Assembly: GCA_008632985.1 (NCBI GenBank)
Contig: QPGO01000045.1
Coordinates: forward strand, 1-64,000
Length of the DNA: 64,000 bases
From: Psammoneis japonica
Taxonomy: Eukaryota
Reading direction: 5' to 3'
How positions within the stretch are numbered: the first letter of the stretch is position 1; each line of letters opens with the position of its first letter. The notes below the pieces were generated by a model, which saw only the letters and a list, made by a program, of their open reading frames with translations, was not told where the DNA came from and ran no database searches. Below, in pieces: positions 20,586 through 64,000 of this stretch. The position numbers and the translations under genes are program-made.

Positions 20586-20630
20586 CTCTTGTACTTGGAT
20601 GATACCTCTTGGTGTGGAGTACTACGTGAA

Positions 20631-22751: not shown

Positions 22752-22881
22752 CAGGACTCACGAGGGGTGTTAAAGGAGTTAAACTTTTATAGAGAGACTT
22801 GAAAACAACATCGTCTAAATTATCGCGATCCACCGCCCCAATGATTTGATCCCTACTGTACGAAAAGCCCACCCAGTTTCA

Positions 22882-26683: not shown

Positions 26684-26733
26684 GCGCCAAAAAGTTCGAA
26701 GGGACAGTTTTCGCGCCACAAACTTGGCGGGAC
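26684..26733. promoter_or_regulatory. E2F-like sites upstream of PMS2
   Basis: GCGCCAAA (26684), TTTCGCGC (26709) and TTGGCGGGA (26724) next to an AT-rich patch. Confidence 0.35.
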
Positions 26734-28168: not shown

Positions 28169-29207
28169 AGGATCGTAAAGGGAAGCGACGACATCAGCCC
28201 CGAGAATGACATCGTGTGGAGCCGTGCGATAGTCTTGTTCTTCTCCCCAACGGAGTACGAAAGCTGATACAGTGCCTGAGGCCCGCTTCACGTCATCGAG
28301 CCCATCATGCCCGTATAGTTCCCGTTGGATATCTTGATCAGTTTCTACTGCATCACCTGAATCAAAGTTCATAGCTATGTTGCGATTCATCAAGTCTAAC
28401 AGTTCTGGAAGGTCAGTGATGTCAACTTGACAATCACGCAAAGCTTTGGCTAACAAGTTGAAAGAGGAAATTAGCAACATAAGTAGTATATCTGTTATCA
28501 AAAAACCTGTGGAGTGGTGTCATCACCACTTTCAACTCCACAGCATCAGCTTACTCACCAACCATCAGTCCACAAAGCCCAGTTCCGCTTCCTAACTCGA
28601 CAATTTTGGATTTTTCTTTGGTTCTCCAATCTCGCCAATGTGAAACTACATACTCTCCCAGAATGAACGCGGCGTCCCAACACTGCATAAAAGGCGAGGG
28701 CCGTAAAAGAAAATAAAGAGAAAGCAGAACGCACGGTCAAATGAGTGGAATAATACTAGATTCTCCTTTTTCTTCCACCAAAGCACCCATTGCTTACCAA
28801 ACCTCCTTTTCCGAGACTCTTGTCTTGTTCAACTATCAAACGCCCGGCATGATCGTCTTCAGTTCCCTCCACGAGACCATAATCAATGTAGTCACAATCT
28901 ACGTGCTTCAAATCGTCATAGTAGCGTTGATGCTTGAGATAAGAATCATATCGAAGCACGCGTTTCCCATTCGAAAGCGTGTCGATTCTGTCCTTTGCGT
29001 CGTCAGAGGTTGCTTCGTTAGGAGTGGATCCTCTCGTTCCTCGGCATCTGCTTGCTCCATCAATCTTAGCTGTCTCATGTAGCTTCCTCTTGCCATGAGG
29101 GCATCGGCCATTCCCAGGGGCTCCTCATCTTGTGACGAGTCATCAGAAGCGTTCTCATCCGGCATCATTGGCTCATTTCTTGCTGCTGTTTCTATGGAGG
29201 CCGCCAT
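27950..29207 (-). CDS. METTL21/family-16 protein lysine methyltransferase-like; multi-exon, apparent frameshift near 29025
   Basis: LIVEQDKSLGKGG, VDITDLPELLDLMNRNI, VLRWGE, DVILGADVV, YISYKGR; exon structure only partly resolved. Confidence 0.7.
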
Positions 29208-31192: not shown

Positions 31193-31459
31193 GGTTCTCT
31201 CTAGCTCAACAAGGCTGTTTCGCAAGATTGATTGTATCAACACCAACAAAAATCAATAATCAAAATGGCGTTGATTGAATGAAAAATGAAAAATGAAGGG
31301 TTCGCAATGCAGAAAAAAGGCTGAAAGAGGCTGTTTTCGAGAACAGCCTAAATACACTAATTATCATATAAAATTTGATTTAGGCTAAAACATTAAATAA
31401 TAAATAGCTTTCTTTCTTCAACCACGTCGTGTCTATAAATAACGGAAAAGCCTTAATGT

Positions 31460-42559: not shown

Positions 42560-43880
42560 GTGTCATTGTATGCACTTCAACGCAAGTCTCATTCAATTTC
42601 ACGCAAAATGCCCCCCACCTTCTTTTGCAATTCCATTGCAAAGTCAACTCCTCAACAATGGGTGCAATCAATCACTGCGTTGCCCTCACTGTTGTAGCAG
42701 AGGAGCTTCAGGAAGTCAAGGGCTGACTCCTCAAGATTCTCATTGTCCCAAAAGGATTCCGTCAAATCTCTTTGTGTGCTTCACCCCTCTCTCATGGTGA
42801 GTGAGTTGCCAATCCAAACAAGCAATGACCACACTGTTGCAGGAAGCAGTCTGGCCTTCTTGGGTCTGGTCTTCTTTCAAAGCTGCAGAAATGCAGCTTT
42901 GACAAAAGCCTTGTTGTGCATCTGGACACGCAACTCAACACTGGACGGCAAGTGTGCAACTGTTCAAGCAAGAAGATTGCAGAGTTGACATCATCAGTCA
43001 GGAAGCAATTGTGGAGCCCTTCTCTTGTTTGCTTCATTGTTGTTTTTCATCGCTTTCTCTGCTTCTGTGTGCGGTTGTGGGGACGTGGGGCTGCACTGAC
43101 CACAGCAGAGCTTCTCAACTGCCAAGAGATCCAGCCATGGCTGTTGGGGGCACAGCCATCATTGCTGCTCTCCAAAAAGTCAAAAAATTGAGGTGGGACC
43201 ACTTCAGCTGCTCACAACTGAAATCACGAGTTCAGCCCAGCTGCTCGTGTTTTTGCGCAGCATGGCATGCACTTGCGCACACACCTGTCAGCAAATTCAT
43301 GCGCCATCCACTGTGTCCATGTGCATCAATGGTCAACAGCCTGCCCCTTCTAACCTTCTTTCCAAGATTCACCTGACAAGTGTCCAAGTCAAGCTCCTTG
43401 GTCATGACACGCCCCATTTGCGAGACTCCTCAACTGTTGCACCCACCAGTGGTGTCTTCCTGCCCCCCAGCGCTCAACCCATGATCATCTTGGTGCAGAG
43501 CGCAGAGCTGGGCACCATTTTCTCACACCTTTTTATTTGGCCATTCTAACAAGGCCTCTGCCTCTCCCCCCTGCCCTCCCCAGCCCCTGCCTTGGGCCAT
43601 TCCCTCTCACTTCTGCAAGAGCTCCCAACCAAGCTCCCTTCTCAGTGCGCCAATCTTTCCTCCTCTCTCCACCACTTGAGAATCTCTGCTCACTCCTTAA
43701 ATGTCAGCTCTCTCCCCACCATTTCAGGTCCTCCTCCTTTTCTTCTTCTCCTCGATCCTGGGCTGCCCAGCTCCTCAGTCTCAACATTGGCCTTGCCCTC
43801 TCCAATCACCCATCTCCGGCACCTGCCAGTCACCGCCGCCCGCCTCCGCCCTGCCACCACACGACACACCGCGAGCGCCT
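42560..43880. repeat. TpA-depleted degenerate repeat island
   Basis: About 7 TA in 1.3 kb by eye, TG/CA-rich, no credible ORF. Confidence 0.6.
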
Positions 43881-43942: not shown

Positions 43943-44861
43943 ATGACGAGCGGAGTTGGATCATCAAGCAACGACATGAAACAGCGAAGGCGAGTATGTC
44001 TTTTCGGCTTATCAGCCGACCCACCAACTTCAGACGGTGGACATGGGGGCATCGTGAAATCCCTTGCGAACGAAAGCTTTGATGAAGTGCGAATCATACC
44101 GGTGTATCAACACACTTTCTCGGTAAGGTTCATTCATTCGATGCGAAATTCCAAGGTGCTTTTTCTGACATTATGTTGCTCATAACCCCAAACTGTTTGT
44201 TTCAGGAAAAGAGAGACAGAATGGCATCATACAGAGACCGAGTTGAAATGTGTAGATTGGCGTTTGCTGGCATCCCCCACGTCACTGTGTCGGAGGTGGA
44301 GCGAACATGCTTTGAAAAGAAAGCTTCTGGCTTGTAAGTGAATATGCATTGTAGAACAATGATGAGGATCATGGATATAGAACTAATTCATGTACTCTTT
44401 CCTTTTGGTTGAATAACAATATTTTCCTGAAAAAAAGAAGCGATTGCGAAAAGGCATCCCTGCGAGTTGGTACAGCAGATTTGCTAGACATGCTCTTGGA
44501 GGAAGAACCGGAATCCGATTTTTATTTTGCGCTCGGAGCAGACACTTTTGTGGACTTGACGAGTTGGAAATGGAGGCGATCACGTGATGTGCTTGACTTG
44601 TTGCAAGGTCGATTCGTTGTTGTCTATCGAACTATGGAGGATCCAAAACGACAGGTTTCACTTGACGCAATCAAGAAGCAAGTAGCAAAAGTTGCCGAGC
44701 AATACCCGGGAAACCAAAGAATACTCTGCATTCCAGGCCTTGAAGCTGTATCATCCACCCAAGTGCGGGCATGTAAGAACGAGGCGTTGCTCCGAGAAAT
44801 GGTGGACGCCTCTGTGCTGTTGTACATACGAGAAAACAAGTTGTATGATTTCGAAGATTAG
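43943..44861 (+). CDS. Nicotinate/nicotinamide-nucleotide adenylyltransferase (NadD-like)
   Basis: VCLFGLSADPPT..GH, R.EMC.LAF, GTADLL, FALGADTF.DL..WKW, VSSTQVR, VLLYIRENKLY; introns from 44123 and 44334. Confidence 0.85.
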
Positions 44862-45263
44862 TTTCTGTTTTGACGTTGCCGGATTCGAGCGAGAAGGATT
44901 GAAAATGAAGAAATCTTGGTTGGCATGGACAAAAAATATCAGTGCACTAAAGGTCAAACGTGGAAGCGCCCTGCTACCTGGCTCATTTAGATCGTTTCCT
45001 TCCAAGGCCACGAGGCCGATGGTTTATTGCGATCAAGAGAATTTGCCCAAGGCACCACATTGTTACGAGTTACACCAGAACGCTTTGTTTCGACAAGAGT
45101 ATGTCGCGAGTGCCGTTTCTAATCAAAAACTAAATCATCAACGAAACCACCTCCGGTATGGAGAGCATTGTCGTTCTGGAGTAATTTGTCCGAAGAATGG
45201 GCAGGTCTATCTTTCTCGACGAGGAGGCACGTCGCGAGACTCGAGACGCGAACGAGATGATGA

Positions 45264-46380
45264 ATGAGCGGTCCTGCATCGGGGAGTACTAGTAGGGCTA
45301 GCGACACGAAACAGAGGAGGCGAGTATGTCTTTTTGGCTTATCGGCCGACCCACCAACTTCAGACGGTGGACATGGGGGCGCATCAACAAGGTTTATCTT
45401 TCTCGACGAGGAGGCATGTCGCGAGACTCGAGACGCGAACGAGATGATGAATGAGCGGCGCTGCATCGGAGAGTAGGGCTAGCGACATGAAACTGAGGAG
45501 GCGAGTATGTCTTTTCGGCTTATCGGCCGACCCACCAACTTCTGATGATGGACATGGGGGCGCATTGTCAAAGCTCTTGGAAACGAAAGTTTGATGAAGT
45601 GCCGATCCTACCTGTCTATCAACACACATTCGTTCGATGCGAAAGTTCCAAGGTGTTTTTTCTGCCAAAGTAGTGCTCACAGCCCCAAACTCATTTGTTT
45701 CAGAAAAAGAGAGACAGAATGGCACCATACAGAGACCGGCGTTTGATGTAACTGTTCGGAGGTGGAACGAACATGCTTTGAAAAGAAATCTTCTGGCTTG
45801 AAAGTGAATGCCGTATGCACTGTATCGTAAAACAACAATGGGTTCACAGATAGAAAAATACCTGGTGTGCTATTCCCTCCTGGTTGAATACCGGTACCAA
45901 TTCTTTTTTAATTTCGCGCTCTGAGCAGACACTTTCGTGGACTTGACGAGTTGGAAATGGAGGCGATCACGTGATGTTCTTGACGACTTGATGTAAGGTC
46001 GATTGGTTGTTATTCATAGAACTATGACGGCTCCAGAACGACAACTTTCCCTCTACGCAATCGAGAACAAGTAGCTTAAAAGTTGCCAAGAAACTCCCAG
46101 GAAATCAAAGAGTACTCTTCATACCCGGCCTTGAAGCTGTATTATCCACCCAAGCGCGGCATACAAGGACGAGGCTTTTCTCCGAGAAGTGGGGGGTGCC
46201 TCTGTGCTGTTGTACATACGAGAAACGGATGTAGGAACTCGATTCACGTTACTTTATTTGAGAGAGAAGGATCGACATCAAAGAAATCTTGGACGGTAGG
46301 CACAAAAAATATGAATGGACTAACGGTCAAACTTGGAAGCGCCCTGCTACTTGGGAAATTCAAATCATCTCCTCCAACAT
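45264..46380 (+). pseudogene. Two tandem degenerate copies of the NadD-like gene (exon-1 fragment 45264-45383; longer deleted copy about 45450-46380)
   Basis: ggcgagtatgtctttt-ggcttatc-gccgacccaccaactt repeated at about 43990, 45320 and 45500; later blocks match 44190-45000 with indels and stops. Confidence 0.85.
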
Positions 46381-47214
46381 CGCTATGGATAGATACATCA
46401 AAACTCTTTTTTCATCAAGAAGCCTGTCACGAGTGCCAATCCTAAGCACCCACAGACATTGCCGCAACATTTATGAAACCAGCTCCTGACCCGAAGAGGT
46501 GGCCATCGTATCCGTTGACCCTTTCGCAGTTGAGTGAGTGGACCTTTTGAAGTCGTTAATCAAAGACGTTCCTCTATGCATTTGCAATGCCGTCGCTGTT
46601 TTCACTCTTGTGGCTTGTGCACACACCCAATAGATCGGGTCAACGATTCCTAGTAGCTCCTTGCGAGAGCCATTCGATTGTCAGAATAAAAGGTCTATTC
46701 CTATTGACAATAAACTCCTCGATATCATCTAATGAGCCCAAGACAGCAGCTGCTGATAAGCCCGTTGCAAGGGCGCCTCCAATGGTCAAGAGTGAGTTGC
46801 AAACAAATTAAGAGTGGGTAACCACATTGTCATCCACGACGATGTTTTTCGTTTCAATCGGAAGAGCTAGTGACTCGACATTCTCTACAGACAGTAGGCC
46901 TAGACACATGCGCATTCTATTGTTGAACTATAGTCTTGCTAGCCATAGCATTACTCTTCTAACGGTACATGCACAACACCATAATGGCACCGCAGGCGAC
47001 TGGCCAAGACACGACAAAAGCATAAATTATAAATTTAGACTTCACCATGATGCTCGCGATTGCCCCAAAGCAGCAGCACAGAACTTGCACCCATGTCCAT
47101 TTTTTGGGAGAAGAACAAATTTTGCCACAGCGCAGGAAAGATCGAATGTCAAGGCAACCCAGCTGGCATCAGCAGACAGGGCAACCAGCTCATGCCTGCT
47201 GACAGTCATGAAGC

Positions 47215-47581
47215 TGCACTATGCTCGAAGAACGAGTGTAAACGAAAGTAGAATAGTGTACGAAAAGTGGAAATTATGAGATTAAATTTTGCTCTGTGAT
47301 TTTTGGTTTCTCCGAACGAGTTCTCAATGGCCTAAAGCTTCTGTACTGCTTCTACAGACAAAAGGCCTTTCGGAGAATATATTCGTGACAACAGATTGTC
47401 CGGATACGATTGCTATTGACACGTAAGATGTCAACATCGTCAATCGATCGTATTTGCAATTCTCGACATCCGATCAACTCTGTGTGATCGTTCTGTCCTT
47501 TGTACGCATCCACGACTGTGGTACGATTGACATATAAATAATATATAATCATAAATATGTATATAACAGTCGCATACTGCA
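47215..47581 (-). repeat. Gypsy 3' LTR (TpA largely retained)
   Basis: Gap-free alignment with 51575-51941. Confidence 0.95.
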
Positions 47582-50500
47582 TTCGCCTCCCTAATTGCAC
47601 ATTAGAGTCATTTGTAAGTGGATTATTCGACGGACATCGACAGTGTCAATAATGTCTCCACTTTCATTGTATTGTGCCATTAGCAATGACTGTTGTTGTT
47701 TTGTATAGGCAATATAGGGCCGTTCCAATTTCCGAATGTCTTTTGAGAGTGACATTGTTTGTTTCTCACTTAATGTGTATATATATAGCATTACGTCGAG
47801 TATTCTCATTGACGTTCTTGTTGATATGAACACAAGGACTAATTGTCCTGGAGTAAGTGTTTTTCCTGATATCGATTGTACATAGCATCGTGCCCAGCAC
47901 TTAATGTACGCTCTTAATTATGGCGTTCACTTACTCACTTGTGGATTTCATGTAGTTTGGCGGGCTTACTTTATATGCCACATTGCTCTGCTGCACTACC
48001 ACGTTTCATAAGTAATAATAAACGATGGTCAAAGATATTATGGCCATTTCGTCTTGATAATCAATCCTGTGATGGTTATGAATTCCATTATGGATTTTTT
48101 TTTTTGTACTTCAACCATCTATCAGTTGGATTTTAATCGTTATTTGGACGTTTCTTTCTGACATACCGGTGTTATTTTGTCATTCCGAAGGCACTGGTTT
48201 CGTGCACTAAGTGGATAAATGTCCATTTTTCTTTTCTTTTTCTAGATCTTTGGCACATCTCGTGTGTCGACATGATGTGTGTTTTAATGTCTTGCCTCGT
48301 ACATTGTACAATACAACCGTACGGGTGTTGTGAGATTGTCTTTTGCCAGTGTGAAGTGGATACGTATAATGTATACCAATCTGTCACTGTTTTTTTCTAA
48401 ATCGTCCTTTAAAAAGGCGATTTTATTCTTGTGACATGAGCATTTTTCGATCTCGCTCGCCTCCACGAAAAGTGTTCGTATGATATGTCGCGTCCGACAA
48501 TTTGGAGGGAATGTCTTTATCCCGTTTTAACGGTAGGACATTGTCGTAGGATTCAATTTTCTATAGTAAGTCGGCTGATCGCGTCTATCGCGACGATGTT
48601 CGCCTTGCCCTCGTTGTATTCTAATTCGGGACTGAAGTTGTCAACGTATGACTTTGTCCGTTGTGTCTTATGATCCGTATATGTATAAATCTGTTGGCCA
48701 AACAGTATATTTCGAAATTTTATAAGTGTTTTCACTATGGACAGAAGTTCTTTTTTCCGTTGTAACGTATAATATTGAAATCCGTGTATGATAACAATAT
48801 AGTTTTTGATTTGATACGCTCCATATTTTCGGAGACTTTTCGTTCCGTACTTGTACTTTTGCCGTTTGACCTTTATTGAGGTGAATTTGGCTAGTATTGT
48901 ACAGGAGATCGTTGAGACTACATGTCTCGATAATAGTAACGTATGACAACGAGATGTCGTAGTGTTCTTTACGTTTTTCTCGTGTTGCGATTGCTTGAAT
49001 CGCCTCCATTTTCTTTGTAATCGATTGCATGTCGTTACGTGTGGAAGTCTTGATAGTTTATTTCAAGTTAAATAGTGAAGGACTTTTGTTGTTAACCTTC
49101 TAAGCGACTGTTCTAGTCGTTTGAATGCCGTATTAAGCTGTCACTTGTGCAGGTGATATTTTGAAGTTACTTTTGTCAGGCACAAACGATCACACATGGT
49201 GGTTCTGACAACTTCAAACCTGTTGTGAGTTCACTCAAGTGTTGCACAAAAATATCTGGGGCTCTGTAGATTCTCATTGGAAGTCCACAGCACTCATTTT
49301 CTCCCCACGGCATGATTTTCGTGTGAGCACGACGTGTGCTTTTTTCATTTGACATGGTGGCATTCCATGTTTGAATCAAATGGATTGCATGTGTGAAACG
49401 TTCTTGCTTCAACAGCATTTCCTGAATATTGGGTAAAGGACACACCACCTGCATGAACCTTACACTGAGCTTCTGAGTGTCGGGTGCGGTCGAACTCGAC
49501 CTGTTTTCTTCAGACAATGAGTCTCAGAGCGACTTGTTCAGAGCAATTTCATTCTCAAGACTTCAATCTTTCATGACAGGTCAAACTCCTTTTGATTGGA
49601 CGCCTCCAAAGACTGTGATAGGAGAAGGTTCTCACGCATCGTGGAATCGCGTCAGATTTTCCACGATGAGATCCACTGATGCTTCCCATGCACTCGTCTG
49701 AGGAACTTTTCAAAACGATTTCAACCTCTTAAGAAGAAGATTGAGTTGGTTGTGTTCATTTGGGTTAGATGCATCGCCGCAGTTGTCACTTGATTAAGAT
49801 TGATGGCGTGACAATGTGAGTCGAGGACCATTGGCTCCATTGTTGACTCCATTCACGGCGTCACATTTTTCAATGTGATCGGTTTTCAGCTTGAAAACAT
49901 CGGCATCGAAGAGTGTGCGAACATTCTTCATAAGGCAATTGCTTCTTCCCATTGGATTTCTTCATTTGCGCAGTCCAATGTGACTTGCAGGACTGGACAT
50001 TAAGTCGCGTCCCATGATCACATCATTTGAACCTGAAGAAAATTTGGTGTTTTCAACACATGCTGTTTGAACATCAGCGTGCCTTAAATTTCGCACAGTG
50101 AGAACTGAGTTCGGTGTTTGCTGTCAGTCGCAAAGAGCTCACCCTTGGTTTCCCAAGTTTTTGGTGGCGGATTCTTGTGTTCTCAACTTTCGCATGAATT
50201 TGCGCAAAATCATGGTTGACGATGTTCCGTTGTCGACAGGAACACGCAGATGCTTTTTTTTTTCTCTCCTTTCCCAAGGAAGTGTTCACACAAATGATGA
50301 CTCCTGGACCAGTGTGAATTGTTTTGCCTTTTTTCTAGGCTTCCCAATGTCCAGCAAAGCGTGCAATTCGTGAACAGACCAAAATTGTTCTTCGGATTCA
50401 GTCTGGATCATCCGATCAAATTGGCATTTTTCTTCACTGAGGGTGTCAGAATCTGATTCTTTGCCCTCATGCTCTTTTTCTTTGTTCAAGGAACTCGCTT

Positions 50501-51574
50501 TGAGCATTTTTTGAACCGCCTGATCAATCATGACGTTCATCTCTTTTTTTGCGAGCGGCATTTTCGTTGTCGCGACGCGACCGCGTGCGATTGCCATTTG
50601 AACGGCGCATTTTTGGGTCTCTTTCAGAGTCACCCTTGCACTCTTTTGCTGGCTCATTTTTAGAATGGCTTCAATCCGTGATGTGGGTGTTCTTTTTTCA
50701 AAGATGAGACCTTGCATTCACTTTGGATTGTTCTGGCACCATGTGGGAGACCATTTTTGGAACCAAATTTGGAGCCTTTTTTATTTTGGAACCAACTGCG
50801 CTGTCAGAGCCTGAGTTGACATGTTTTTTCGTCACGGACGTCATGAACGACCTTCAGATGACTCAAAACTTAATCATCTCATCAAGGATGAGTTGCAATG
50901 GTTGATTGTTTTGGACAGTAGACTGATGCTGCCATCCTTGCGGTGCGAGTGATGGCTGATAAATCAGCGCTCGGTTTCCCGCTAGATTCGACTTAGAATC
51001 CATCTGAGGGTCGTGTGGACTCTCATCGTTGACCTCTTGGGTCTGACAGAGGCTTTCTCGCTGTCAAGCAGCTCTGGTTTCTTCAGGTCGTCTCGAAAAT
51101 AATTTCCCTGATTCTGAAGTGCATTTCCTCGGAGGACATGAGTTGTGAGACGCTTGAGGCACTTTCCAACGATTCCCTCTTGCTCCTTGGACTCGAGGAT
51201 CATCGACTCGGTCTCAAAAAACTCTCCAATGGTCTCTCCTTGCATGGTAGACGCATTTCTCGGATCTGATCGACTCGGAACTTGCGTTCTCTGCAACCAT
51301 GACTTGGTGTAGATTTTTTGACAATGCGGTGCACTTGAGAGCCCTTGATCCTTGGGTGCTTGGAACAGACCGCATTGGAGCGAATCCTCTTGTCTGGCAG
51401 ACGAAAAACAGCGTTCCATCTTGAGGTGCTGCTCGGCTTGAGCTTCTTCCGCTCGGAAATCGATTCCAGCAGAACTGACGCGATTCGTTCCTGTTCACAG
51501 AAGAATTTGCAAAGGCACATTGGTTAAAATTTTCATTTTCCGTGCTTTTTGCCTTCTGTGGTGTGTGTGCACAA

Positions 51575-51941
51575 TGCACCATGCTCGAAGAACGAGTGCA
51601 AACGAAAGTAGAACAGTGTGCGAAAAGTGGAAATTATGAGATTAAATTTTGCTCTGTGATTTTTGGTTTCTCCGAACGAGTTCTCAATGGCCTAAAGCTT
51701 CTGCACTGCTTCTACAGACAAAAGGCCTTTCGGAGAACATGTTCGTGACAACAGATTGTCCGGATGCGATTGCCATTGACACGCAAGATGTCAACATCGT
51801 CAATCGATCGCGTTTGCAATTCTCGACATCCGATCAACTCTGTGTGATCGTTCTGTCCTTTGTGCGCATCCACGACTGTGGTGCGATTGACATGTGAACA
51901 ACATGTGATCACAAACATGCACACAACAGTCGCACACTGCA
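51575..51941 (-). repeat. Gypsy 5' LTR (TpA hypermutated)
   Basis: Identical to 47215-47581 except at TpA sites. Confidence 0.95.
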
Positions 51942-53295
51942 AAGCAGCACCAGCAGCACACAACACCAGCTGTGCCAATGATTGCACAAAGGGAGCATTG
52001 CATTCCTTGTGGGGTTGCCCGGTGGGGCCATCTGTGTGGCAGTCTCAAAAAAAGCAAAAAACTCATCAGATGCCCCCCACAACATTCAGCAACCAAGTCA
52101 GACCATTTGGAAGGCCAACAGCACTGCACAATTTTGGTGACTCAGTCAGCTCAAGAATGCTGCAGTCATTTGGAGTGACATGCTTTCTCTGCTGCTGTGG
52201 CAACAACCATTGTTTGTTGCTGCTTCCACCATCTCTGTTTGCTCTTGCAGCTCAAGAATTCAGGCTTGCATTGTGGCACAAAACAAGGTCATTTCAAATG
52301 TCTTTTTGTTGAAAGAGACACCCGCCTGCATCAGTGAAAGAGAGTTCAAGGACCATGCTTCATCTCAGAGGCTTGCACCACTGTCTTGAGAAAATCACAC
52401 CTGTCCTCCAGAGACAACAAAAGGGAGAGGAGCACAGAATTTCTTAAATTTCTGCTGGCAGTTGCTCACTGCAGCCCACTTCTGGCTGGCACATTGGCAA
52501 AGTCATGTGTGGTGCTGCTGCTGGCCAGCACTTTTGTGTGCCAAGATTTTCCAAAGTTTTGCTCCACCACCTCAAGGACCATGCACCAATCCAATGGTGC
52601 AACTCTGCAGCAACAAAAGAGCCTGTTGACTTTTTTGCTGTGCCAAGCACCTGGGCTGTGTCTTGCACAACCAGAGTTTGTTGTGGGTGCACTGACAACA
52701 CTTCTTGCAGAGAGCAGCCAGAGAAGCTGGGGCAAGAAGCAGAGATGAGCACTGGCATTTTTTGACACTCTCCTGGGGAAAGAGAGGCCCACCCAGGCTC
52801 CACTTCTGTCTGCAACTCATTGACACAACTTCATTGACTGTGGATTGGCAAGCATGGTGGGGAGGCCCCTGTGTTGATGAAAAGACTGCAGGCTCTTCCT
52901 CTTCTAGAAAAAGGACAAGGCTGGTGCGCACTTTTTTTCAAGACTTTCAAATGTCGAAAATCATTTTTCACATTGAAGAACATGCCCAGTCAAACAAAGC
53001 AAGTCTTGACATTGATGCTGGAAGCACGTGCAACACTCCACCAAAGAGGGACACTTTTTGCAATTTGGGGCACAAGACAGTGCCCAAGTTTGGCTTCTCC
53101 TCCTGCAAGAAGCCTTTGTTGGAGCGCTGCAGCTTGCTGGTCTAGCTGGCACATGTTTGGCTTCAGAAACAACCCCGAACTCACCGCGTGTGTCTCACAA
53201 GCACATTCCCAATGCTGTTGACCACCATTGCCATGTCAACCGGGTGAAAAAGCCAAAAAAGTGAGCACAAGACCCACAACACAATCCAAGCTGTG

Positions 53296-53740
53296 TGCAG
53301 CATGCATGCAGACAAAAGGTTATTTTGTCACGCCCTTTGTGACATTTAAAGGCTGCAACACGTCGCCGTGATGCATCAACTCTCATCAGTGGCTGCATGT
53401 TGCACTCCTCCCCATGTGTCACGCGTCCATGCGGCTCTTTGCTGACGTGCACTGACACTGCACGGTTTTGGTGGAACAGTGTGGGTGCGTGCGAAGGAAC
53501 ACACAGAACTGCACAGAGTTTTGCGCGTTCGACAGTGATCAACGTTGCTGCAGACAACTCCCACTCAGGGTTTCGAACCCCTGGCCTCCTGCCCAATGGT
53601 TGCGATGAACCACTCCGCTGTGAATTCACAACGCAGCATGCGTGCAGACAAAAGGTTATTTTGTCACGCCCTTTGTGACATTTAAAGGCTGCAACACGTC
53701 GCCGTGATGCATTGACTCTCATCAGTGGCTGCATGTTGCA
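53296..53740 (-). mobile_element. TRIM-like miniature LTR element
   Basis: 109-bp direct repeats 53296-53404 and 53632-53740 with inverted termini, TSD TGTG (53292-53295, 53741-53744), PPT ggggaggag (53405-53413, minus). Confidence 0.8.
53558..53625 (-). other. tRNA-like Pol III A/B-box segment inside the TRIM
   Basis: Minus strand cAGCGGAGTGG (53610-53620; A box TRGCNNAGYGG with T>C) and GGTTCGAAACC (53569-53579; B box), 30 bp apart. Confidence 0.55.
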
Positions 53741-54459
53741 TGTGAGTGCAAATTCACCACATTGTCTGCATTGTCAGCGCATCTTTGCACCGCAACACTG
53801 TTTGTCTGTCCTGTGACAAAAACCACCTTTGACCCTTGATGTTCCAACACACTCCTTTGCATGAGCCGTCAGTTGGTTGGCCTCGTGCACATCAAGTGCA
53901 GTGCCAGGAGGATGACACTTGGAAATCATGCCACCCAACACCACTTTGACTGCTTCATTGATTCAAAAGCCCACATCATCTGACTCTGCCAACAAATGAT
54001 CACTGTCAGGACAATCCTTTGTCACATGTCCAACCTCATCACATTTCTGGCATTTGATTTGCGTTTTCTTGTTCTGGGCAAAACTTGCAACCTCAGGTTT
54101 CTTGTTGTTCCCAAATGTGTCCAACACCTGCAATGCCTCCCCTTGGTCACATTGGGGTGATCATCACCCCTGACAGAAATTGAAGGCAAATGGCAAGAAT
54201 TCAAACAACAACTCCTCACTGCTGTCTAAACAGCAGATGAGTCTCCGCTCAGAGACCGTTGCAGGAGCCGAAAGACGTGCAAGTCGGCACAATCGGGCTG
54301 CTGTTGTCATTCTTGTGAGCCTTGTGGCTCGAAAGCAAACTACATCGCGCGTGAACGCGCGGAACTAAAGCACACAAAACTGTGCGCGGTAAACTAAACA
54401 GCGCGCGATGCTTCGCGCGCATCCAAATCCTGTTCAAATCCTGTCACTCCCCAGTTTGC

Positions 54460-57400
54460 TTGAGGAGCCACAGAAACAGATTCGACTTCGGATGGAATGA
54501 AGTTCCAGAACATGAGGGGGCGGAGAAGGTCCCAGATTTGGGAGCAACCCCAATGCTTGCTGAGAATGTCAGCAGGGTTGCGGGAGCCTTCGATGAAGTG
54601 GAACTCAAGGCAACCAGAGGCAATTGCCTCACGCACACGGTGGAACGACAGTGCGGTGTGTCGCTTGTGTAACTTGGAGTGCGGGATGGTGGCACTGTCT
54701 ACAACCGACTTGTTGTCACCGAACATGTAACTGACATTGCGGATCGGGACGCCAAGGTGGCGCAGGGTGATGCGCAGGTCGACAATCTGCTCAACACAAT
54801 TCCTTGCGGCAACAAATTCAGATCCAGGTTGCAGTCTCCACGGTGGCTTGTTTCTTGGAGAACCAATCAGCTGGGAATTTGTTGAGGAAGTGGAGCATTC
54901 CCATGACAGAGCGTCCGGTGAGCATGCAATGGCACAAGTTTGCATCGACGTAGTGGGTGGCAGTGATGAACTTGCCAAGGGGCGGTGGAGCGTCCTTCGG
55001 GATCATCTCTTCTGCTTCACCATGCACGGAATGCATCCATTCATAGGCCGGAGCAGGGAGATCCGAATGGTCGGGCTCTTCCGTGCGAACGCGGAGAGCA
55101 CCGTGTCGCATCTTGGAGAGGCACCCACAGACGCGTTTGGCACGATCCAAGTGGCCTTGACGGGGCGCAGCTCGGAAGCTAGAGAGTGACATGACAGCCG
55201 TGGCAATGTCAATTCGACCAAGGGACACTGCCCATTGGAGTGAACCAACAAGAGACTGGAACTTGTGAATGCCATCGGGTCCCAGCAGTTTGGAAGTGTC
55301 CAGTTCGGGGTGGTCACCCTTCTCTAGAGGTGACAGGGCGTTGGTGGCAGGTTTCTCCCCAAACAGTCGGGCGCAACTGTCGACCATGCGCTCGATGTAC
55401 TTGCGCGGAGACAGGCACAAGGTTCCATCGGGGTCCCGGGAAAAGTCGCAACCCAGATGGAACTCAATGGGTCCCGCACCCTTGAGCTTGAACTTGTGCT
55501 TTTCCGTGAGAGTGTCGACGAAAGATTGAGGGTCCTTCATGGCAATGGCGAGGTCATCCACATAAACGGCAATGTGTTCACAGTGGTCGCCGTTCCTGCG
55601 CATCCAAATGTCGGGTTCGGCGCGGCAGGGGAAGAAGCCTTCAGCTCGCAGGCAGTCGGCGAAGCGCTCGTGCCAGCGGAGACCGGAGCTGCGCAGTCCA
55701 TGCAGTGCCTTGTGGATGACAAGGATGTGTCCTTCGAGTTTGCCAAATTCGGGTCCAGCTACAATGTAAAGCTTCTCCTTGGTGGTGGCTTCAAGGTGGG
55801 CATTGCCAATGTCGGTGGCCCATGTCTCCAGCTCGTTGAGTTCGGCCAGGAAAATCATCAGCCGAAGGCCACGGAGGGAGACCACTCCGGAGTAGACACT
55901 GTCGACAGGTACGTCCGTGAGGTGCCCGTCGGCTACGAGTCGTGCCTTGTGGCGACCGTCGTGTTTCACGTCGCACACCAGGTGCACTCGGATCTTCTTG
56001 TGTCCCGCAGGAGGAGTGGAAGACTTGAAGGGCCCGCAGTCATGGAAGACTTCGTATTCGTCGAGTTGGTCCATCTCGAGATTAGTTGCGTCTCCCCACT
56101 TGCGGTTGCCGTTGCGTTCGTCTAGTGACATGGCGTGTTTGTAGTTCCGGGGAACTTCGCATCCGTACTTGTAGCGAGGTGCAGTGCGGAAGGAGCGAAG
56201 CTTGGCTTGGTTGGCCATGCGAAATAGCTTCTTTTGGCGCCTCGCGATGGTGCGGAACCGCTTCCAGCCATCCGTGTCGAGGAGTCCGTTCTCTCGTGCA
56301 TAGATGGCACAGGTGACGGGGTCGTCCTTGGCGATGATGGCAAGAGGCTCGGACGTGATCTCCCCACTTTCCCATTCAAGCATGATGTTGTAGCTTGAGC
56401 CTTTCCAGGTTGGGTCGTGAGGCTTCAGAGGTCCTTCGTGTGACACGATGCGTCGAAATTTCCAAACAGTGGTGTCTTCGTCTTCTTGCTCAATGTGATT
56501 CATGATGTCATTGCAGGCAAGGACTTCCTCGTATTCGTCATTGTTGACAGAGCAGACGAACTTAGTGAGCTCGGGATTGCCGTTCACTTTCCATTCGTGG
56601 TCTTCGACGGCCTTGACGATGCGAGCTCTGTGGCGTTGTCCGTCCTCTTGTGGCTGCATGAGGAAGGTACGTCCAATGATGTCTTGCGGATCGAAAACTG
56701 GCATCTTGGGTGTCCTGATCTCCCCATCAGGAGAATCGACGGGGTTGTCGTCATGGCGAGATTTGATGATGGGTTCAGGTGGCTCCCCATCAGGAGGATC
56801 AAGACGCAGGTTTCGAACGGCAGGATCGGGGGTAGCGGAGCGAACGTTGGACCGGCAGAGGATCTTCTGAGTCTCGTCAGATAGAATCTTGAAGGTCATC
56901 TGGTGGCCGACGTGCTCAGCAATGCCAACGAAGCGTCCACGCAACTCACGGGATTCGGACGGCCAATCAGAGTCATCGAGGTGGAAGTGCACTGGTTCCC
57001 ACCAGTGAAAGCGAAGCAATGGGCTGATGTCCGGGGTGGATCCAGTGAGAGTCTCGAGGGGCGTGCGCCAGTGGAGACGTGGGGACGCTGTGTGGTTGAG
57101 CATGAAGCACACATGCATGAGCGCCAGCAGCCATGTGTGGGCGGGCGAACCAAAACGGTCCATGACAGTGTTCGCCATGCGCTTCACGGTCTGGTGTCGA
57201 CGCTCGGCAAAGTTTTGGTGTTGCTGGTGAGGCTCACTTTGCCAGCTGGAGATGAAGAGGGCGCGTAGGATCCCGAGCACTTTGTTGCTGATCTCAACTT
57301 GAGCACGGTCGCTAATGAGTTTGGATGGGGCACCACGTTCACGGATCTGATCCTCGAGTGTGTTGACAAACTCTTTGTCCGTCTCAGTGCCGTAGACGTC

Positions 57401-60061
57401 AGTGACGGTAGACTCGGTGCCAACAAACAGTTGGGCGCTGGTGCAACCAGAGTCGACGGCCGGGGTGTCGGCACAAACGGTGTCAGTGGCGACAGGCTCG
57501 TTGCGGCGGTGCACATTAAGGGCGGGGTTGGGTGATTTGTGGGCCTTGCGAAGGTGTGCACCGGCGGGCATGCGGGCGTACTGCGTGGTGCAGTCAAAAG
57601 TACGACGGACCGTGTCGGCAGGTAGGAAGCCAAAGCAAGGCCGAAGAGACTCGAAGGGGGGGTCCTTGGGCTGTACAGTGCGCTCCGGAGGTGGAACGTC
57701 ATCGCCCTGGGGGTCAATCGCATGTAGATGACACTCGGAGAACACGTCGTCGTTCGGAATGAGGTGATCATCGAGGGCGGACGCGTGATCGGCAGACAAG
57801 GAAGCGGACAAGATGGTCTCGTTGACAACGACACGGTGACGGCAGTTGCCGCACTCGTCAAATGGGTTGGCGGTGGGATCGTCCTGCAGGTCAGAGATCG
57901 CGTCGTGCCACTGGTCGTCGTCAGTGACAGAGTGATCGAGGACGGAAGGGTCCCATGTGTCATCACCGGTGAGGATGACATGGGGCAGGGTGTCCCATTC
58001 GGCGTCAGTGCAAGGTCGCATGGCAACATGAGGCAGGCCAGCCTTGATGTCAATGGGGATGACACAGCCATCAGGAGTGGCAACACGTTGCAAGCCGTTG
58101 GGCACCTTGACAGAGCGATCGTTGACATCCTGTTTGTGCCATTCGAGCTGGCCGCAGGAATGGATGGTCTTGCCCTTTCCCGTGCATGCGCACTGATGGA
58201 GGATGGCGATGACGGGACCACGCTGGGTCTCAATGACGGCACCAGCGGTGACAATGGGGATGTCCACCAATTGGTGATCGTCAATGCCCTGAACGTCGAC
58301 TTGGCGAGAGGTGCGTGCAATGACGCGAACGTCGTCGCCAGCAATGCCGCCGTTGGCCCCACGATCGACTAGAGCGCCAGTGCGTGTGGAGCGATGAGCA
58401 GAGGCAGAGTAAATGACATTGTGGTTGTCAACGCGGCGGCAAGTGCGGCCGTTAAGTTCTGTGTCATCTGCAGGAGCTGGCGGGGTAGAGGAAGCGGCGG
58501 ATGGCCCCGGTCGACTGGCATTGGGGGCTTGGTTAGGTGACAACAGACGTTGCAGATCACCGGGTGGCAGTGGCTTGCACTTGGTGAGGTGCGCCAGGAT
58601 GGGATTGTCCGAAGTGGCGTCCACATGTGCAGCGGAGTCACCACAGTCAGCAGGAGTCGTGTTGGATGAGTTGACATCACCGTCGCTCCCAAGGTGTTGG
58701 TCGTGAAGGTTGGCCGTAACAGACTCATGGCAGTTGCTGGCTCGCGGGTTGCGGGGAGGCGGACAAGAATGCTCAAGGATGATCGCCTTGGAGGAATCGG
58801 GCAACGAATCCCAGAGCCGTTGGTGGTCGGGAGGGAGACGTCTCCATTGGACACCGGTGAGGCTGGGACCGCGGGTGCAGGCAGCATTGGCTTGAAGGAC
58901 GTCAACGTCGCTGTCAATGTCGTAGAACACATCGTCGGACGGTTCCTCGGAGCAGACGTCGTGTGCGCATGTGGCGCGTCGGGGAGCTCTAGGTGTCGTC
59001 TTGGGTTGAAACGTGCTGTCGCACTGAGCTGCCGCAGAGAGGAGCAAGCCACAGCATTGATCGCATGTGAGGCTCTTGCCACTCTGTGTACGATGCTGAT
59101 CAGCTTGGTTCTTGACAGCACGGAGTTCCTCGACAGGGTGCACGGCATTCTCGAGCATGACGCGCTTCTGTCCTTCAGAGAAGTGGTCACTGGCGGGGAT
59201 GAGTGCCTCGCACTTGCGCAACTGATCTTGCCAATGAAGGATGAACCCGTGGGTCGGACCTTTCCAAGTGCCATCACCAAGACGTGCGGTGGTGAGGTGC
59301 GTGAGCAGGGTGGAGGACTCGACAGATGCGCGGGTGGAGGCAAGCGCGTGCTCAGACAAGGAGCGGCAGACGGTCTGTGCGTCAGAAGACCCCACATTGT
59401 CGCGAATGAGAGCCTTGCCCTTGTCGGTGAGAAGGATGCGTTCGAAGACGGCGAACATGTGCTTTTGCTGTTCAGCAAAGAGCAGTTTGTCTTCGGGGCT
59501 GGTCGGTTTGTACGACGAGTCTAGAATGCACTCGACGTCTTGGGCACGGGCTTGTGCCACAAGTGAGGTGTGCCAAGTGTGCCACTGCTTGTCAGATTTG
59601 AGAGCTGTGAAAGCAGTGGGATCACGCTTGATGCCTCGCTTGAAGTCTCGCACCAGGTCGCGTGCCTTGGTCGGGTTGGTGACATGTGGAGGTGCAAGGG
59701 GTGAGCTGCCGATGGACACAGAAGACATGTGGTCGGGGCTGAGGCGGTGGGCAAGGAACTCGTCATGCGTGAACAAAGAGGAGTCGTTGGCAACGTCAAG
59801 ACCTTTGTGTGCTTTGACAATGTGCAGACTGACCAGTGCTGCTAACATGTTCTTATAACCACGGGGCAAAGGGATTGCATTGGTGCCGTTGTCGCACTCA
59901 AGCGAGTCGATTTGGGACGGCATGAACGTGAACAGTTCCTGATGTGAGTCCGTGCCGTCTTGGGCCAAAGCCAAACGAAGAGGACTCCCAGCACCTTGGG
60001 CAAGCACGGTTCCAACAACATGCTCGAAACCATCGGTTTGTTGCTGACGAGTGAGAACCAT
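54460..60061 (-). pseudogene. Copia gag-pol polyprotein, Tyr-depleted, frameshifted near 54825
   Basis: LVDRGANG (protease), ISDRAQVE / QNFAERR (integrase), RHKARLVA, YVDDL (RT), SEFVAAR, GDNKSVV, NPADILSK (RNase H, second frame). Confidence 0.92.
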
Positions 60062-60990
60062 GGCAGACAAAAGTGGTGTCAGGACAATCAATTCTGGTTG
60101 GGAAGCGAAGGTAGACTCGAAACTTGGGTGAGAATGGACTTGACTTGAAATGGACTTGACTTGAAATCTTGAACTATCTTAAAATCAGAAGTCGCCGGGC
60201 TTTGTCATCCCGTTCGTTGTTGAGTGCTAAACTTCCCATCCGGTCCGTAGAGTTGTGCCGGCACGTCCGAACCCGCAGCCAGCGGCACTTTGGGTTGCTC
60301 ACGAGCGGAGTAGCGGGTTGTAAACCCCTGCAGGTAAGCTGACTAGAGGTGGACAAGACCCCCGAACCGTTCTTGTTTTTATGTCGGTTGGATTTCCCGA
60401 TCAGGCTGGCCAGTTGACGCAGGCGTTGGGCGCTGTGGACGAACGAACAAACGCGGGAAAGCACCCTCGCCCCAACGTAGGCTGCAATCACGGCCACTTG
60501 CTCTCACAGTCATCCTCGTGGACCTAGCAGAACTGTAGAGCACCAGTGGTCCGGGGTAGATCAGGTGCAATGGACTCGGTGTGCTTGTAGAGTGGCAGCA
60601 AAACCGTAGTCCGAAGAGTGGATAAAGGTTCTTGGCCGTGAAGATATGCATGTATATATATATATGTCTTCAGCGACTAAGATCCTTGAATGTGTAGGGT
60701 TCTTGACCGTTAACCGAGGAATAGGTATATCAAGGGATGTTGATCAAGGATAGACTTGGATATGACCGTTGAATATAAGTCTTCAGCGACCAAAGGTAGT
60801 ATAATCAATCCAGATATCCAGCGGTAAGGAGACTTGACGGTGACGTTAACTTCCTGCCGATGCCCTGGTATTGAATGCGCGTAGACTTGCCGATGTATGT
60901 AGAATATATACGGAGGTCCACGTAGAATTGAAATAGCGTCGTTGGTAAATCAACGACGACGATGGCGGTTGCTCAATGGGTTGACAATGA

Positions 60991-61005
60991 GCAAGACTGT
61001 TAATC
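60991..61005 (-). promoter_or_regulatory. Putative primer binding site complementary to a tRNA-Asn anticodon arm
   Basis: Plus strand gCAAGA CTGTTAA TC directly abuts the 5' LTR; it reads as anticodon stem, CT-GTT-AA loop and start of the 3' stem. Confidence 0.55.
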
Positions 61006-61286
61006 TGACAGAAAATGAAGGCAAATGGCAAGAATTCAAACAATAACTCCTTACTGCTGTCTAAATAGCAGATGAGTCTCCGCTCAGAGACCGTCACAGG
61101 AGCCGAAAGACGTGTAAGTCGGTATAATCGGGCTACTGTTATTATTCTTGTGAGCCTTGTGGCTCGAAAGCAAACTACATCGCGCGTGAACGCGCGGAAC
61201 TAAAGCACACAAAACTGTGCGCGGTAAACTAAACAGCGCGCGATACTTCGCGCGCATCCAAATCCTGTTCAAATCCTGTCAACCCC

Positions 61287-64000
61287 CCAGAGTGAACTGC
61301 TGATGTAAATCTTTCAAGACATGCCATCATTCATTGGCACACTCCTCCATTGGCACTGCCACTGACAACTTGTTTCTTTCTTTTTTCTGGGCATCATCAG
61401 CATCTTTGCTGAACCCATCTTCTTTCTTGGCAATCTCCCCCATGATGATTCTGCCACAGCACATTTCTGCCACCCCCTCAACAAAATGCTCAAGAGCTGA
61501 CGATTGAAACTGCCTTGAAGCACCTTTCCTCCTTCATCTTGATGAATGGTTTGCAGCCACTTCCAAGCCTTGGCCACCTGGACATGTGGGTTTGTCTTCT
61601 CACTTGCATCAAACAAGATCAACACGAGATTTTCTGGTGGTGCTGCCATGATGTTCTCCACTCCTTTGTGACTCTTGCAAACTCCCCACTCCTTCAATCT
61701 TGTGAGGATGAATGGCCTTGGCACATTGTCCCACAATTGTGCCAAATGCACTTGCCTTCTGGATCTTGCAGATCACATTCTGTTTCACACAGTGATCACA
61801 TTGCTTGTCCCAGATTGCCTTGCTCTTCTCCAATGTTGTGTCTCATGATGAAAGCTGCCTCTGACCCCAAAGTCCACAGCCTTTCCCAAGCAGACAGAGA
61901 GATCTGCCCCCATGCCACCCAGCAGCATTGGAGCTCTTTTCTTCAAAGAGAGCATCGCAGCTCAAAGAGCTCTGCAGCCCACTTCTGTTTTCTGCTTGTG
62001 ATCCAACCAACAAGGTCAAGCTCATCTCTGGCTCCACCAAAATGCTGCAAGCCTCTGTGAGTCTTTGATTGAGCCTCGCCCCATTCTTTGAAAGGGGGTG
62101 AGAGACCTCATTGGTGTGTTGGACTCAATGGAGCTCATCACTTGGGCTCAGCAGATTGGCTGCATGTGCCAAAAGGTTTGCTTTGGAGTCTGGATTTCAT
62201 GACTGAAAATTCTGGTTCAAGCCATCCCTGCACCTTGGCAGCCATTTCCAGCCCTGGCAGAGTGTTCTTCAACTCCACACTCTGCATCAAAGCATTGAAA
62301 TCTTCCAACATGGCCATGTTTCACATGGAATGACAAGTGCAATTTTTGCACAAGTTGCCATGGCAGTGTGCTGTGTGGTTGTTTTTGGCAACTTTTTTTA
62401 AGTTTGTGATTGCAGCAGTGGCACCAATTGACAACATGTGAAAAGGACATGATCAATGTGTGTCACAAAGCGCCAAAATGATGCACACTTTTTCCTGTTG
62501 AAATGGCCCTGTCATGCTGCACTCAAGATCTTTTTCTGTCTTCTTGTTGCACTGCAGAAAGTCTGTAAAATGTCATGGCTTTTGTTCAAAATTTATCCGC
62601 ACTGGATCAGATCCCTGTGTTCTTGACAAGGGCCGGTTGATTGTGGTTGAAGAGCCTTTCACAATTGTTGTGACATGTGAAGCAGGAAACAACACTGAAT
62701 GAAAATTGTTCTTGCAGTGCATGTCATCTTAACAAGATGATCTTTGTGCACACCAAGAGTGATTTCAACATGACTCAGTTTTTGTTTGCAATCAATGTGG
62801 CAGACAAAGCAGGAAACAATGGCAAACAAACCTTGTGACTTGCAAGGCTGTGTGCTGTTCACACAATCTGATTCTTGCACGCCACAATTTGTTTTTTTGG
62901 CACTGAGTCTGCTTTTGCTCCCTGTTTTTTCTTGTTCTTTCCTCCTTGCTTTGTTGGCTCTTCTGCCAGTGCTGCCATTGCCCTTTGCTGTCTGCACATG
63001 ACAAGCCATCATCAGACATCTCTTGAGCCAGAGAGCCAGTGCTGAGTTCCTCCATCACCGGTGCACCATGATGAGAAAATCAATGTTTTTGTTGAACAAC
63101 CACTTCCCACCTTGTTCATTGGGAAAGACACCTCCATTGTTTGTTGATTGAGGCTCTTGATTGCTGCCAGGAAGCAACAAAAAGGAGAGACAAGTGTGAG
63201 GGATTGTCATCAAGAAGGTGTGGGGGGACATGAATCTGTTGGTGCTTGAGCAAAGGAAATTGTTGAGAGGTCCTGGCACATCCAAAGAGGAGCATGAGGC
63301 AAATTGTCACTTGAGGAGCTGACAGGGGAGGGAGGTGCATTGCACAGGCCAAAATGGAAGAAAGAAAAGAGTGCTGAGGACACCATTGAAAATGTCTGCA
63401 GAGAGCACACTGGCCATTGTTGTCAGACATCTGACCAGGAGGACAGAGTGGGTTGCATTGCAACAGGGATGTGCCATTGTCGTCAGTGCATGACATTGGA
63501 GGATGAGTTGTGCAGTGTCCAATGGGAAAAAAGGACAAATGCAGCAGAGCAGAAATGGAGCAAAACAAAGGCAGAAAACTGAAGGGTGGAAAAAAGCAAA
63601 CAAATGAAGTTGTTGGCAAGTTTGACATTTGGACAGAATGAACATCATCATTCATGAGTTAAAAGCCAGCATGAGACAAAATTTGCATTTGTGCAAATTG
63701 AGTGTTGTGGTCACAATCATCAGCACAAATGTGAAAATTGTGACAATTGGTCAGTGCTCTTCTGATGGTCAAGCATGGAAACATGTCACAAACTAAAGTC
63801 AGACTGTGAGGCAGCTAAATCAGATCCTTGCAACACATCAACACCTGTGTAGACTGGTGCAAATGTGGTGGACACAATGCCGTTGTTGTTCTGTTGAGAT
63901 GGCTTTTAGAGCAGAGTGTTGAAATGGCTGAAGACAAGGTTGCAAGAACTTTGCATTTTTGACAACAATTGCTGAAGTCACCAATGATGAGTGCAACATT
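61287..64000. mobile_element. Older, heavily mutated repeat relic (right of the Copia insertion)
   Basis: No TA by eye in 61308-62398 and 62732-63659; very few CG; no intact ORF. Confidence 0.65.

Follow-up and report, generated by a model that had tools for sequence, protein, structure and literature searches.

In the repeat-induced point mutation (RIP) of fungi, C is changed to T at CpA and G to A at TpG, which makes TpA, AT-rich DNA and many stop codons. The APOBEC3 and ADAR enzymes act on a single RNA or cDNA strand before integration and leave strand-coordinated changes, normally in both long terminal repeats (LTRs) of a retroelement; ADARs prefer a U before the edited A. ADAT2 and TadA are tRNA adenosine deaminases and the source of adenine base editors; their known substrate is tRNA, with U-A-C in the target loop. 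The closest described process is that of the chlorarachniophyte Bigelowiella natans, a rhizarian. According to the abstract, Results and Discussion of a preprint, two integrated viral regions of this alga mutate at about 1000 times the genome rate in mutation-accumulation lines, and 230 of 231 mutations are A-to-G or T-to-C, all on TpA (Mettrop et al., bioRxiv 10.64898/2026.01.13.699255). In the same parts of the preprint, new mutations are seen in real time in some lines only, reverse transcriptase and DDE domains are over-represented in low-TpA coding sequences, and an ADAT2/TadA-like deaminase is proposed as a candidate enzyme (bioRxiv 10.64898/2026.01.13.699255). Here we describe a related footprint in the diatom Psammoneis japonica, a stramenopile. 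It lies in the first 64,000 nucleotides of contig QPGO01000045.1 (assembly GCA_008632985.1), the whole of which is referred to as the window, and it affects a Copia element, a neighbouring Gypsy-like element and relic DNA. These sequences probably underwent a regional, TpA-specific hypermutation after the elements had integrated, for which adenine deamination would be the chemistry.

The sequence at 54171–61281 is a complete LTR retrotransposon on the minus strand. It has the features of Ty1/Copia elements, namely paired LTRs with TG...CA ends (276 bp each), a 5-bp target-site duplication and an RVT_2 polyprotein. The only long open frame (P0001) runs on the minus strand, so that the LTR at 61006–61281 is the 5′ LTR. 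P0001 is 57–60% identical to Copia polyproteins of about 1850 residues from metagenomes, the best match of any protein found, and the matches run over the full length; an integrase domain was not reported by Pfam in the polyprotein. At the frameshift near 54824, 1–2 extra letters are present in read contigs of some other Copia copies. The second-nearest atlas cluster of the polyprotein is annotated 'Blackbeard family protein' (score 0.95). The element is an intact LTR retrotransposon of the Ty1/Copia type and a relative of the diatom Blackbeard/CoDi elements, which are likewise of the RVT_2 Copia type and of similar length. The terms hypermut-, deaminat-, dinucleotide and tyrosine do not occur in the Blackbeard/CoDi paper (Maumus et al., 2009; PMC2806351).

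As the LTRs of a retrotransposon are identical at insertion, each pair records what has happened since. Pairwise alignment of the Copia LTRs gives 13 differing nucleotides in 276 bp. Ten are single transitions, at which TA in the 5′ LTR reads CA (7) or TG (3) in the 3′ LTR at 54171–54446. Of the other three, one is a T/A transversion in column 10 and two form an adjacent double difference in columns 90–91 (cgtTGcag against cgtCAcag). A first-pass annotation of this DNA had counted 10 of 15 TA sites as CA or TG in the other LTR, with one A/T transversion and one CA-versus-TG site besides; the alignment reproduces the count and agrees exactly on the remainder. The five TA of the 3′ LTR are all shared with the 5′ LTR. 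Chance does not account for the differences, since all 10 single transitions hit the 30 of 276 positions that lie within a TA. All 21 CpG are unchanged between the two LTRs. For columns 90–91 an ancestral TA is favoured on rates, as judged from the alignment, since none of 21 CpG differ as against 10 of 15 TA.

The LTRs of the Gypsy-like element repeat this signature more strongly. They differ in 26 nucleotides at 25 sites, where TA on the left corresponds to CA (15), TG (9) or CG (1) on the right, and there is no non-TA difference in 367 bp. With 25 of 30 TA sites changed and none of the 307 other positions, the rate at TA is far above background in relative terms. The two LTR pairs together have 39 differing nucleotides, of which 38 are transitions. 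Thirty-six of the 39 lie in a TA of the TA-rich copy, as one or two transitions per site, and a further two belong to the TG/CA site, which an ancestral TA would fit. The pairs thus act as a natural clock: the Gypsy-like pair shows 25 of 30 TA sites converted and no background change, the Copia pair 10 of 15 and one. Dating by LTR divergence fails here: the raw values of 4.7% (Copia) and 7.1% (Gypsy-like) drop to 0.4% and 0% when the TA sites are removed. Among 49 open reading frame (ORF) pieces the sole domain match for the Gypsy-like element is RT_RNaseH at 23.6 bits, below the cut-off of 24.8, and the label 'Gypsy-like' is taken solely from this sub-threshold match. Its minus orientation is read from the same match and from a purine tract beside the left LTR only. 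Given this orientation the mutated LTR is the 5′ one, and in the Copia element the RVT_2 frame on the minus strand makes it the 3′ one, in keeping with the first-pass annotation.

Sequence comparisons indicate that TA is the ancestral state and CA or TG the derived one, the change being T-to-C or A-to-G at TpA, and hence that the TA-poor LTR is the mutated copy, as first proposed. This follows from conserved tyrosines that are now histidine or cysteine, from the TA content of relatives, and from family sites at which TA, CA and TG all occur. The decisive evidence is that of tyrosine, both codons of which contain TA, as scored in an alignment of P0001 with 29 homologs. In the 32 columns with tyrosine in at least 80% of these, P0001 has Cys (11), Tyr (10), His (7), Phe (3) and Trp (1); in the 60 columns with tyrosine in at least 50%, it has Cys (TGY, 20), Tyr (17), His (CAY, 15), Phe (6) and Trp (2). 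Seven control homologs keep tyrosine at 27–32 of 31–33 columns conserved as tyrosine, and P0001 keeps conserved His, Cys, Phe, Trp and Leu columns as the controls do. The tyrosine content of P0001 is 1.06%, compared with 3.0–4.4% in eight tabulated homologs. Set against the 65 tyrosines of P0004, the window copy has Tyr at 14, His at 18, Cys at 19, Phe at 6 and other residues at 8, and two full-length metagenome relatives have Tyr/His/Cys of 50/0/1 and 48/4/1. A metagenome scan with P0001 found 22 loci, 35–58% identical; there is no close copy of the Copia family among them, and TA observed/expected is 0.50–0.85 in 21 of the 22. In the window Copia the loss of TA is equal at the three codon positions (observed/expected 19/85, 14/57 and 18/88), which marks it as unselected decay. 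A change of TpA to CpA or TpG cannot create TAA or TAG, and the frame of 1786 codons has therefore stayed open, with no stop codon, although most of its conserved tyrosines are lost.

The third line of evidence comes from other copies of the family. Contigs from four public sequencing runs (one sample, one study) were aligned to 47000–64000 of the window, their depth being a rough guide to copy number. Variation between copies in one run consists mainly of transitions (A>G 150, T>C 181, C>T 119, G>A 123; transversion classes 5–13 each). Among the 40 of 665 variable places that were tabulated, none of them within the LTRs, several are TA in the window and CA or TG in other copies, or the reverse. 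At 56833/56834, for instance, the window has TA, and CA makes up 58% and TG 25% of the depth. Where all three states occur, TA is the only one from which single steps lead to both others. The first-pass annotation had offered a match of the family consensus to the TA-poor LTR as a refutation. This test is not valid here, because most copies of the family are themselves converted and the majority letter is often CA or TG at sites that were ancestrally TA.

The change extends far beyond the LTRs. TA observed/expected is 0.0–0.3 in most of the Copia element, the surrounding DNA and the right half of the Gypsy-like element, 0.85–0.86 in 47215–49199 and 60100–61281, and 0.58 in the genic part (3000–30000), so the genes are spared. 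A continuous TA-poor domain (Table 1) joins the Gypsy-like 5′ part to the relic DNA and to the Copia element, where it extends from the 3′ LTR as far as some 50 bp upstream of the ATG. Its edges near 49200 and 60100 are sharp, with 6–12 TA per 100 bp to the left of the first edge and 0–3 to its right, and with counts that climb again between 60100 and 60600. Six of seven conserved tyrosine codons survive in some 350 bp at 56050–56400, inside the converted part of the Copia element, so that conversion is patchy over distances of a few hundred bases. Tyrosine makes up 1.6–3.4% in 10 of 12 long host ORFs and 0.3% (PMS2) and 0.8% in the other two. The PMS2-like ORF proved uninformative as a host-gene tyrosine control, the family being naturally tyrosine-poor with only four conserved tyrosine columns.

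Table 1. Features of the two retrotransposons, the TA-poor domain and the TA-free islands in the window (o/e, observed/expected).
Feature	Position	Strand	Remarks
Gypsy-like target-site duplication AAGC, 4 bp	47211–47214 and 51942–51945		intact
Gypsy-like 3′ LTR, unconverted	47215–47581	-	367 bp, 30 TA
Gypsy-like internal part, unconverted	47582–49199	-	sharp boundary near 49200
Gypsy-like 5′ LTR, converted	51575–51941	-	367 bp, 5 TA; 25/30 TA sites changed
Copia target-site duplication ACCCC, 5 bp	54166–54170 (left) and 61282–61286 (right)		intact
Copia 3′ LTR, converted, TA-poor	54171–54446	-	5 TA, GC 0.507
Copia polyprotein remainder (RNase H end), other frame	54472–54825	-	beyond single frameshift near 54824
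Copia open frame P0001	54818–60178	-	1786 codons, first Met 60061; Pfam RVT_2
Unconverted patch, Copia 5′ untranslated region and 5′ LTR	60100–61281	-	TA o/e 0.86; 66 TA in 1182 bp
Copia 5′ LTR, unconverted, TA-rich	61006–61281	-	15 TA, GC 0.471; at most 1 site (columns 90–91) possibly converted
Continuous TA-poor domain, 10.9 kb	49200–60099		93 TA vs 612 expected (0.15); CA+TG o/e 1.46
Relic DNA hosting the Copia insertion	51942–54170		TA o/e 0.05, CpG 0.29
Right flank of same relic, low copy	61287–64000		TA o/e 0.05, CpG 0.08, CA+TG 1.83
TA-free island between genes	31455–33238		1 TA in 1784 bp; CpG o/e 0.24
Further similar islands	42696–43350; 2305–3106		TA-free, CpG-depleted

The relic DNA on both sides of the Copia element and three islands elsewhere in the window show the same loss in its most extreme form. 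TA observed/expected in the relic islands is 0.00–0.05, and conversion reaches saturation, with 0–1 TA in 1.3–1.8 kb. CpG observed/expected is 0.08–0.42 and CA+TG 1.66–1.86 over the relic flanks and the three islands, as is expected if TA and methylated CG both decay into CA or TG. Self-BLAST detected no similarity among the islands, none of 18 ORF pieces from relic and islands matches a Pfam family, and no further Copia remnant appeared beyond 54472–60055 in tblastn with five Copia polyproteins. Beside the Copia element the relic includes a very high-copy segment (53237–53803; summed depth about 68,000; repeat edge near 53256), which contains a 108-bp direct repeat (53297–53404 and 53633–53740, 97% identical). 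An assembly gap of 568 N (1737–2304) adjoins the island at 2305–3106, and TA-free islands may coincide with repeats that are hard to assemble.

The flanks of the Copia element are not themselves repetitive throughout. Summed depth is 94–380 over 52103–53236 and 61742–64000, and the 94–112 of 52103–53236 indicates low or single copy; single flank contigs have a depth of about 59–67. Two flank contigs show no other letter than the window over 242 and 283 bp, a 547-bp contig on 61253–61799 shows one, and a 5322-bp contig, of which 2.2 kb lie on 61789–64000, shows two. With so few differences, the odd composition of the flanks is no assembly slip. A 1408-bp contig on 51915–53323, at single-copy depth, has only two substitutions, at 51985 and 51987, where the window has CA and the reads TA. 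These two places hint at an allelic (heterozygous) difference or at recent conversion. Other read contigs link 54130–54170 to 61285–61397 and skip the Copia element (7262–7264 bp); one of them has 30 other letters between 54140 and 61285. These contigs may stem from an allele without the insertion or from a paralogous relic copy.

Taken together, these observations suggest the following course of events. The Copia element would have integrated first, and a regional hypermutation would then have turned A:T into G:C at TpA only, yielding CpA, TpG or, where both strands were struck, CpG. The converted 10.9 kb would include the 3′ LTR and coding region of the Copia element, the relic DNA, and the Gypsy-like element from its 5′ LTR through its 5′ half. 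The 5′ LTR and 5′ untranslated region of the Copia element and the Gypsy-like 3′ half would have stayed outside, which would explain why each LTR pair is lopsided. That conversion followed integration is argued by the intact target-site duplications of both elements, by the converted halves of two unrelated elements that adjoin across the relic in one domain, and by the CA/TA difference at 51985 and 51987 in a locus at single-copy depth.

Adenine deamination would be the only simple chemistry that gives these letters. Adenine in duplex DNA would be deaminated to hypoxanthine on either strand, preferably in the context 5′-T-A-Y-3′. Both strands are struck, and the outcomes CA and TG alternate almost at random, with 10 runs over 24 Gypsy-like LTR sites and 20 runs over 35 coding sites (hand count); strand coordination was looked for in the Gypsy-like LTR and the coding sites and not found. 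One TA of the Gypsy-like LTR has become CG. As each TA contains two adenines, one per strand, these were scored separately. Conversion was seen at 30 of 57 T-A-Y and 6 of 33 T-A-R half-sites (Fisher p = 0.0016), with T-A-G at 2 of 12. In the coding region a purine precedes 11 of 15 Tyr-to-His sites and 5 of 17 kept tyrosines, a bias of codon neighbours that agrees with the T-A-Y preference, as does the enrichment of CTAA, CTAG, CTAC and TTAA among the surviving TA of the domain. The summed depth of the Gypsy-like element is about 9,000–13,000 internally and 20,000–27,000 in the bins that hold the LTRs. Its two halves have similar depth and only one is converted, and low-copy flanks are converted too, so targeting does not appear to be driven by repeats. 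A chromatin-type domain is a plausible target.

The kind of process seen here has been described already in B. natans, and the window shows the same transitions, the restriction to TpA, the regional extent and the foreign DNA as target. In the parts of the preprint named above, as in the window, A-to-G and T-to-C changes on TpA give TpG or CpA depending on the strand, regionally and far above background; foreign or selfish DNA is struck and the ordinary genome spared, clusters depleted in TpA are rich in CpA and TpG, and targets can be single-copy. The two cases differ in host (a rhizarian there, a stramenopile here), in target (a giant-virus/virophage insert there, multi-copy LTR retrotransposons and relic DNA here) and in the nature of the evidence (mutation accumulation there, comparison of LTR pairs and tyrosine codons here). 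New are the host lineage, LTR-retrotransposon targets with a before/after pair, and the Tyr-to-His/Cys footprint, together with saturation, edges inside elements and the 3′-neighbour preference. The abstract, Results and Discussion of the preprint do not mention LTRs, retrotransposons or diatoms, and no report of TpA-to-CpA/TpG hypermutation in diatoms or retrotransposons was found in the open-access literature and bioRxiv. On this basis the window would add a second, distantly related lineage with TpA-only hypermutation and a first case in LTR retrotransposons.

The other systems are less close. With fungal RIP the window process shares dense, regional transitions at CpA, TpG and TpA dinucleotides, transposable elements as targets and distorted dinucleotide indices. 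The direction is reversed, however: TpA is lost, GC rises and no stops arise; moreover, low-copy DNA is changed as well, and there is no sign of repeat pairing. From its letters the process appears as a mirror image of RIP without RIP's defining feature. RIP indices can flag the wrong, unconverted parts of such elements. Like APOBEC3 and ADAR editing it would be a deaminase-type hypermutation of retroelements, but both strands are affected at neighbouring sites, the LTRs differ, and T-A-G is a poor context. ADAT2 and TadA act on an adenine after U or T, and their U-A-C loop resembles the T-A-Y preference, although their substrate is tRNA.

The most serious alternative retains the TpA chemistry and moves it into the lineage of the elements, in master copies or in RNA or cDNA, with the asymmetry of the LTRs produced by later gene conversion of one end. 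The Copia family is very abundant (summed depth 70,000–120,000, against about 65–110 for the flanks; about 1000 copies), and several points that favour a change in the lineage weigh against the post-integration reading. Contigs from low-coverage runs are 97.4–99.8% identical to the coding region of the window copy, so some of the conversions may have been inherited from a mutated master copy. In a related metagenome contig (L002, positions 785–3514; 49% identical to P0001) TA observed/expected is 0.15 in the coding part and 0.69 upstream; TA is found once against 33 expected at codon positions 2–3 and 5 times against 78 at positions 3–1, while part of the tyrosine is retained. The pattern resembles that of the same mutational pressure after filtering by selection, at the level of the lineage. 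Its edge lies at the ORF start, and in the window Copia the spared patch stops some 50 bp short of the gag ATG; the shared position suggests a rule that depends on element anatomy and that a simple domain model does not explain. The Gypsy-like element has the opposite polarity, with its 5′ end converted. Further reservations are that the 3′-neighbour preference comes from 90 half-sites, and that naming an enzyme would be a guess, since a modified thymine (of the 5-hydroxymethyluracil or J type) or a repair bias gives the same letters.

Other observations fit poorly with a change in the lineage. Both strands are struck without strand runs, which does not match the editing of a single-strand RNA or cDNA, and the equal loss of TA over codon positions is that of unselected sequence. 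Gene conversion from a foreign donor should bring in non-TA differences, of which the Gypsy-like LTRs have none. The low-copy flanks are TA-free, the converted parts of two unrelated elements adjoin, and a single-copy locus is polymorphic for TA and CA. An origin in the lineage is thus rather unlikely as an explanation of the whole pattern, and conversion of the integrated DNA in place remains the preferred reading.

It is slightly less likely again that the altered base was thymine, either as 5-hydroxymethyluracil or a J-like base at TpA that pairs with G, or through a bias in T:G repair. TpA is self-complementary, so that the struck base cannot be told from the sequence, and the neighbour preference can equally be written R-T-A or T-A-Y. 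There is, however, no simple chemical route from T to C, and a repair bias requires prior mismatches, by which 25 of 30 sites with no background change could hardly be reached. In the only measured case, that of B. natans, the authors attribute the change to adenine deamination, which is unproven there as well (bioRxiv 10.64898/2026.01.13.699255).

Selection against TA, through a TA-cutting nuclease, TA-targeting transposons or UpA-cleaving RNases, would agree with the related metagenome contig, which retains some tyrosine codons while synonymous TA is lost. It is very improbable for the window, where conserved and functionally important tyrosines are destroyed, the two LTRs of one insertion differ, and a non-coding low-copy relic is TA-free. 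An artefact of sequencing or assembly, such as the miscalling of a modified base at TpA in silent chromatin, has an equally poor standing. The four runs come from one sample and study, maybe the very sample behind the assembly of the window. Against this, independently assembled contigs repeat the TA-free flanks with 0–2 other letters each, these sites vary between copies of the family, and the older islands also show CpG decay, which is an evolutionary footprint.

RIP-like cytosine deamination (CpA/TpG to TpA), with the TA-rich LTR as the mutated one, was dropped on the dinucleotide profile and the tyrosine test and is scarcely credible: the pairwise differences alone are symmetric and the TA-rich patches at 60501–61000 and 48501–49000 come near the RIP thresholds (TpA/ApT 0.89–0.96; (CpA+TpG)/(ApC+GpT) 0.74–0.99), but the conserved tyrosine codons of the 29 homologs are His or Cys codons in P0001, it is the TA-poor part and not the TA-rich one that departs from the 0.50–0.85 of relatives, the 1786 codons contain no stop, and CA and TG occur as a dimorphism at single sites.

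The occurrence of the footprint in a second lineage would speak for a widespread defence and against an oddity of Bigelowiella. It is possible, though this is a tentative suggestion, that diatoms, like Bigelowiella, have an active defence by DNA adenine deamination against silent foreign chromatin, acting at 5′-T-A-Y-3′ on either strand of the duplex and erasing TpA to saturation. If so, such a defence would be ancient and broadly distributed, taking in at least the stramenopile–alveolate–rhizarian (SAR) supergroup. Transposons would be killed without stop codons and would leave long 'zombie' ORFs that lack tyrosine, and islands that are TA-free, later CG-free, and rich in CA and TG would form a fossil record of past invasions. 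Constraints on the enzyme and its targeting come from the T-A-Y preference, from the changes on either strand and from the sharp edges that lie within elements. For annotation the consequence is that gene finders will call long open frames for dead, tyrosine-lacking proteins.

The remainder of the window is gene-dense with long exons. The PMS2-like ORF has nine homologs with a named organism, eight of them from diatoms (Attheya, two Thalassiosira, Cylindrotheca, two Nitzschia, Fistulifera and Seminavis); the ninth carries a CCRYP_ tag, which we take to be Cyclotella cryptica. Three repeats lie outside the elements described above. A 15-bp tandem array (13 overlapping register copies) at 30756–31040 is located within a minus-strand ORF (30128–31252) without a Pfam family, a tandem duplication of about 415 bp (92% identical) occupies 27339–28169, and direct repeats of 74–91% identity are found at 43972–46377.

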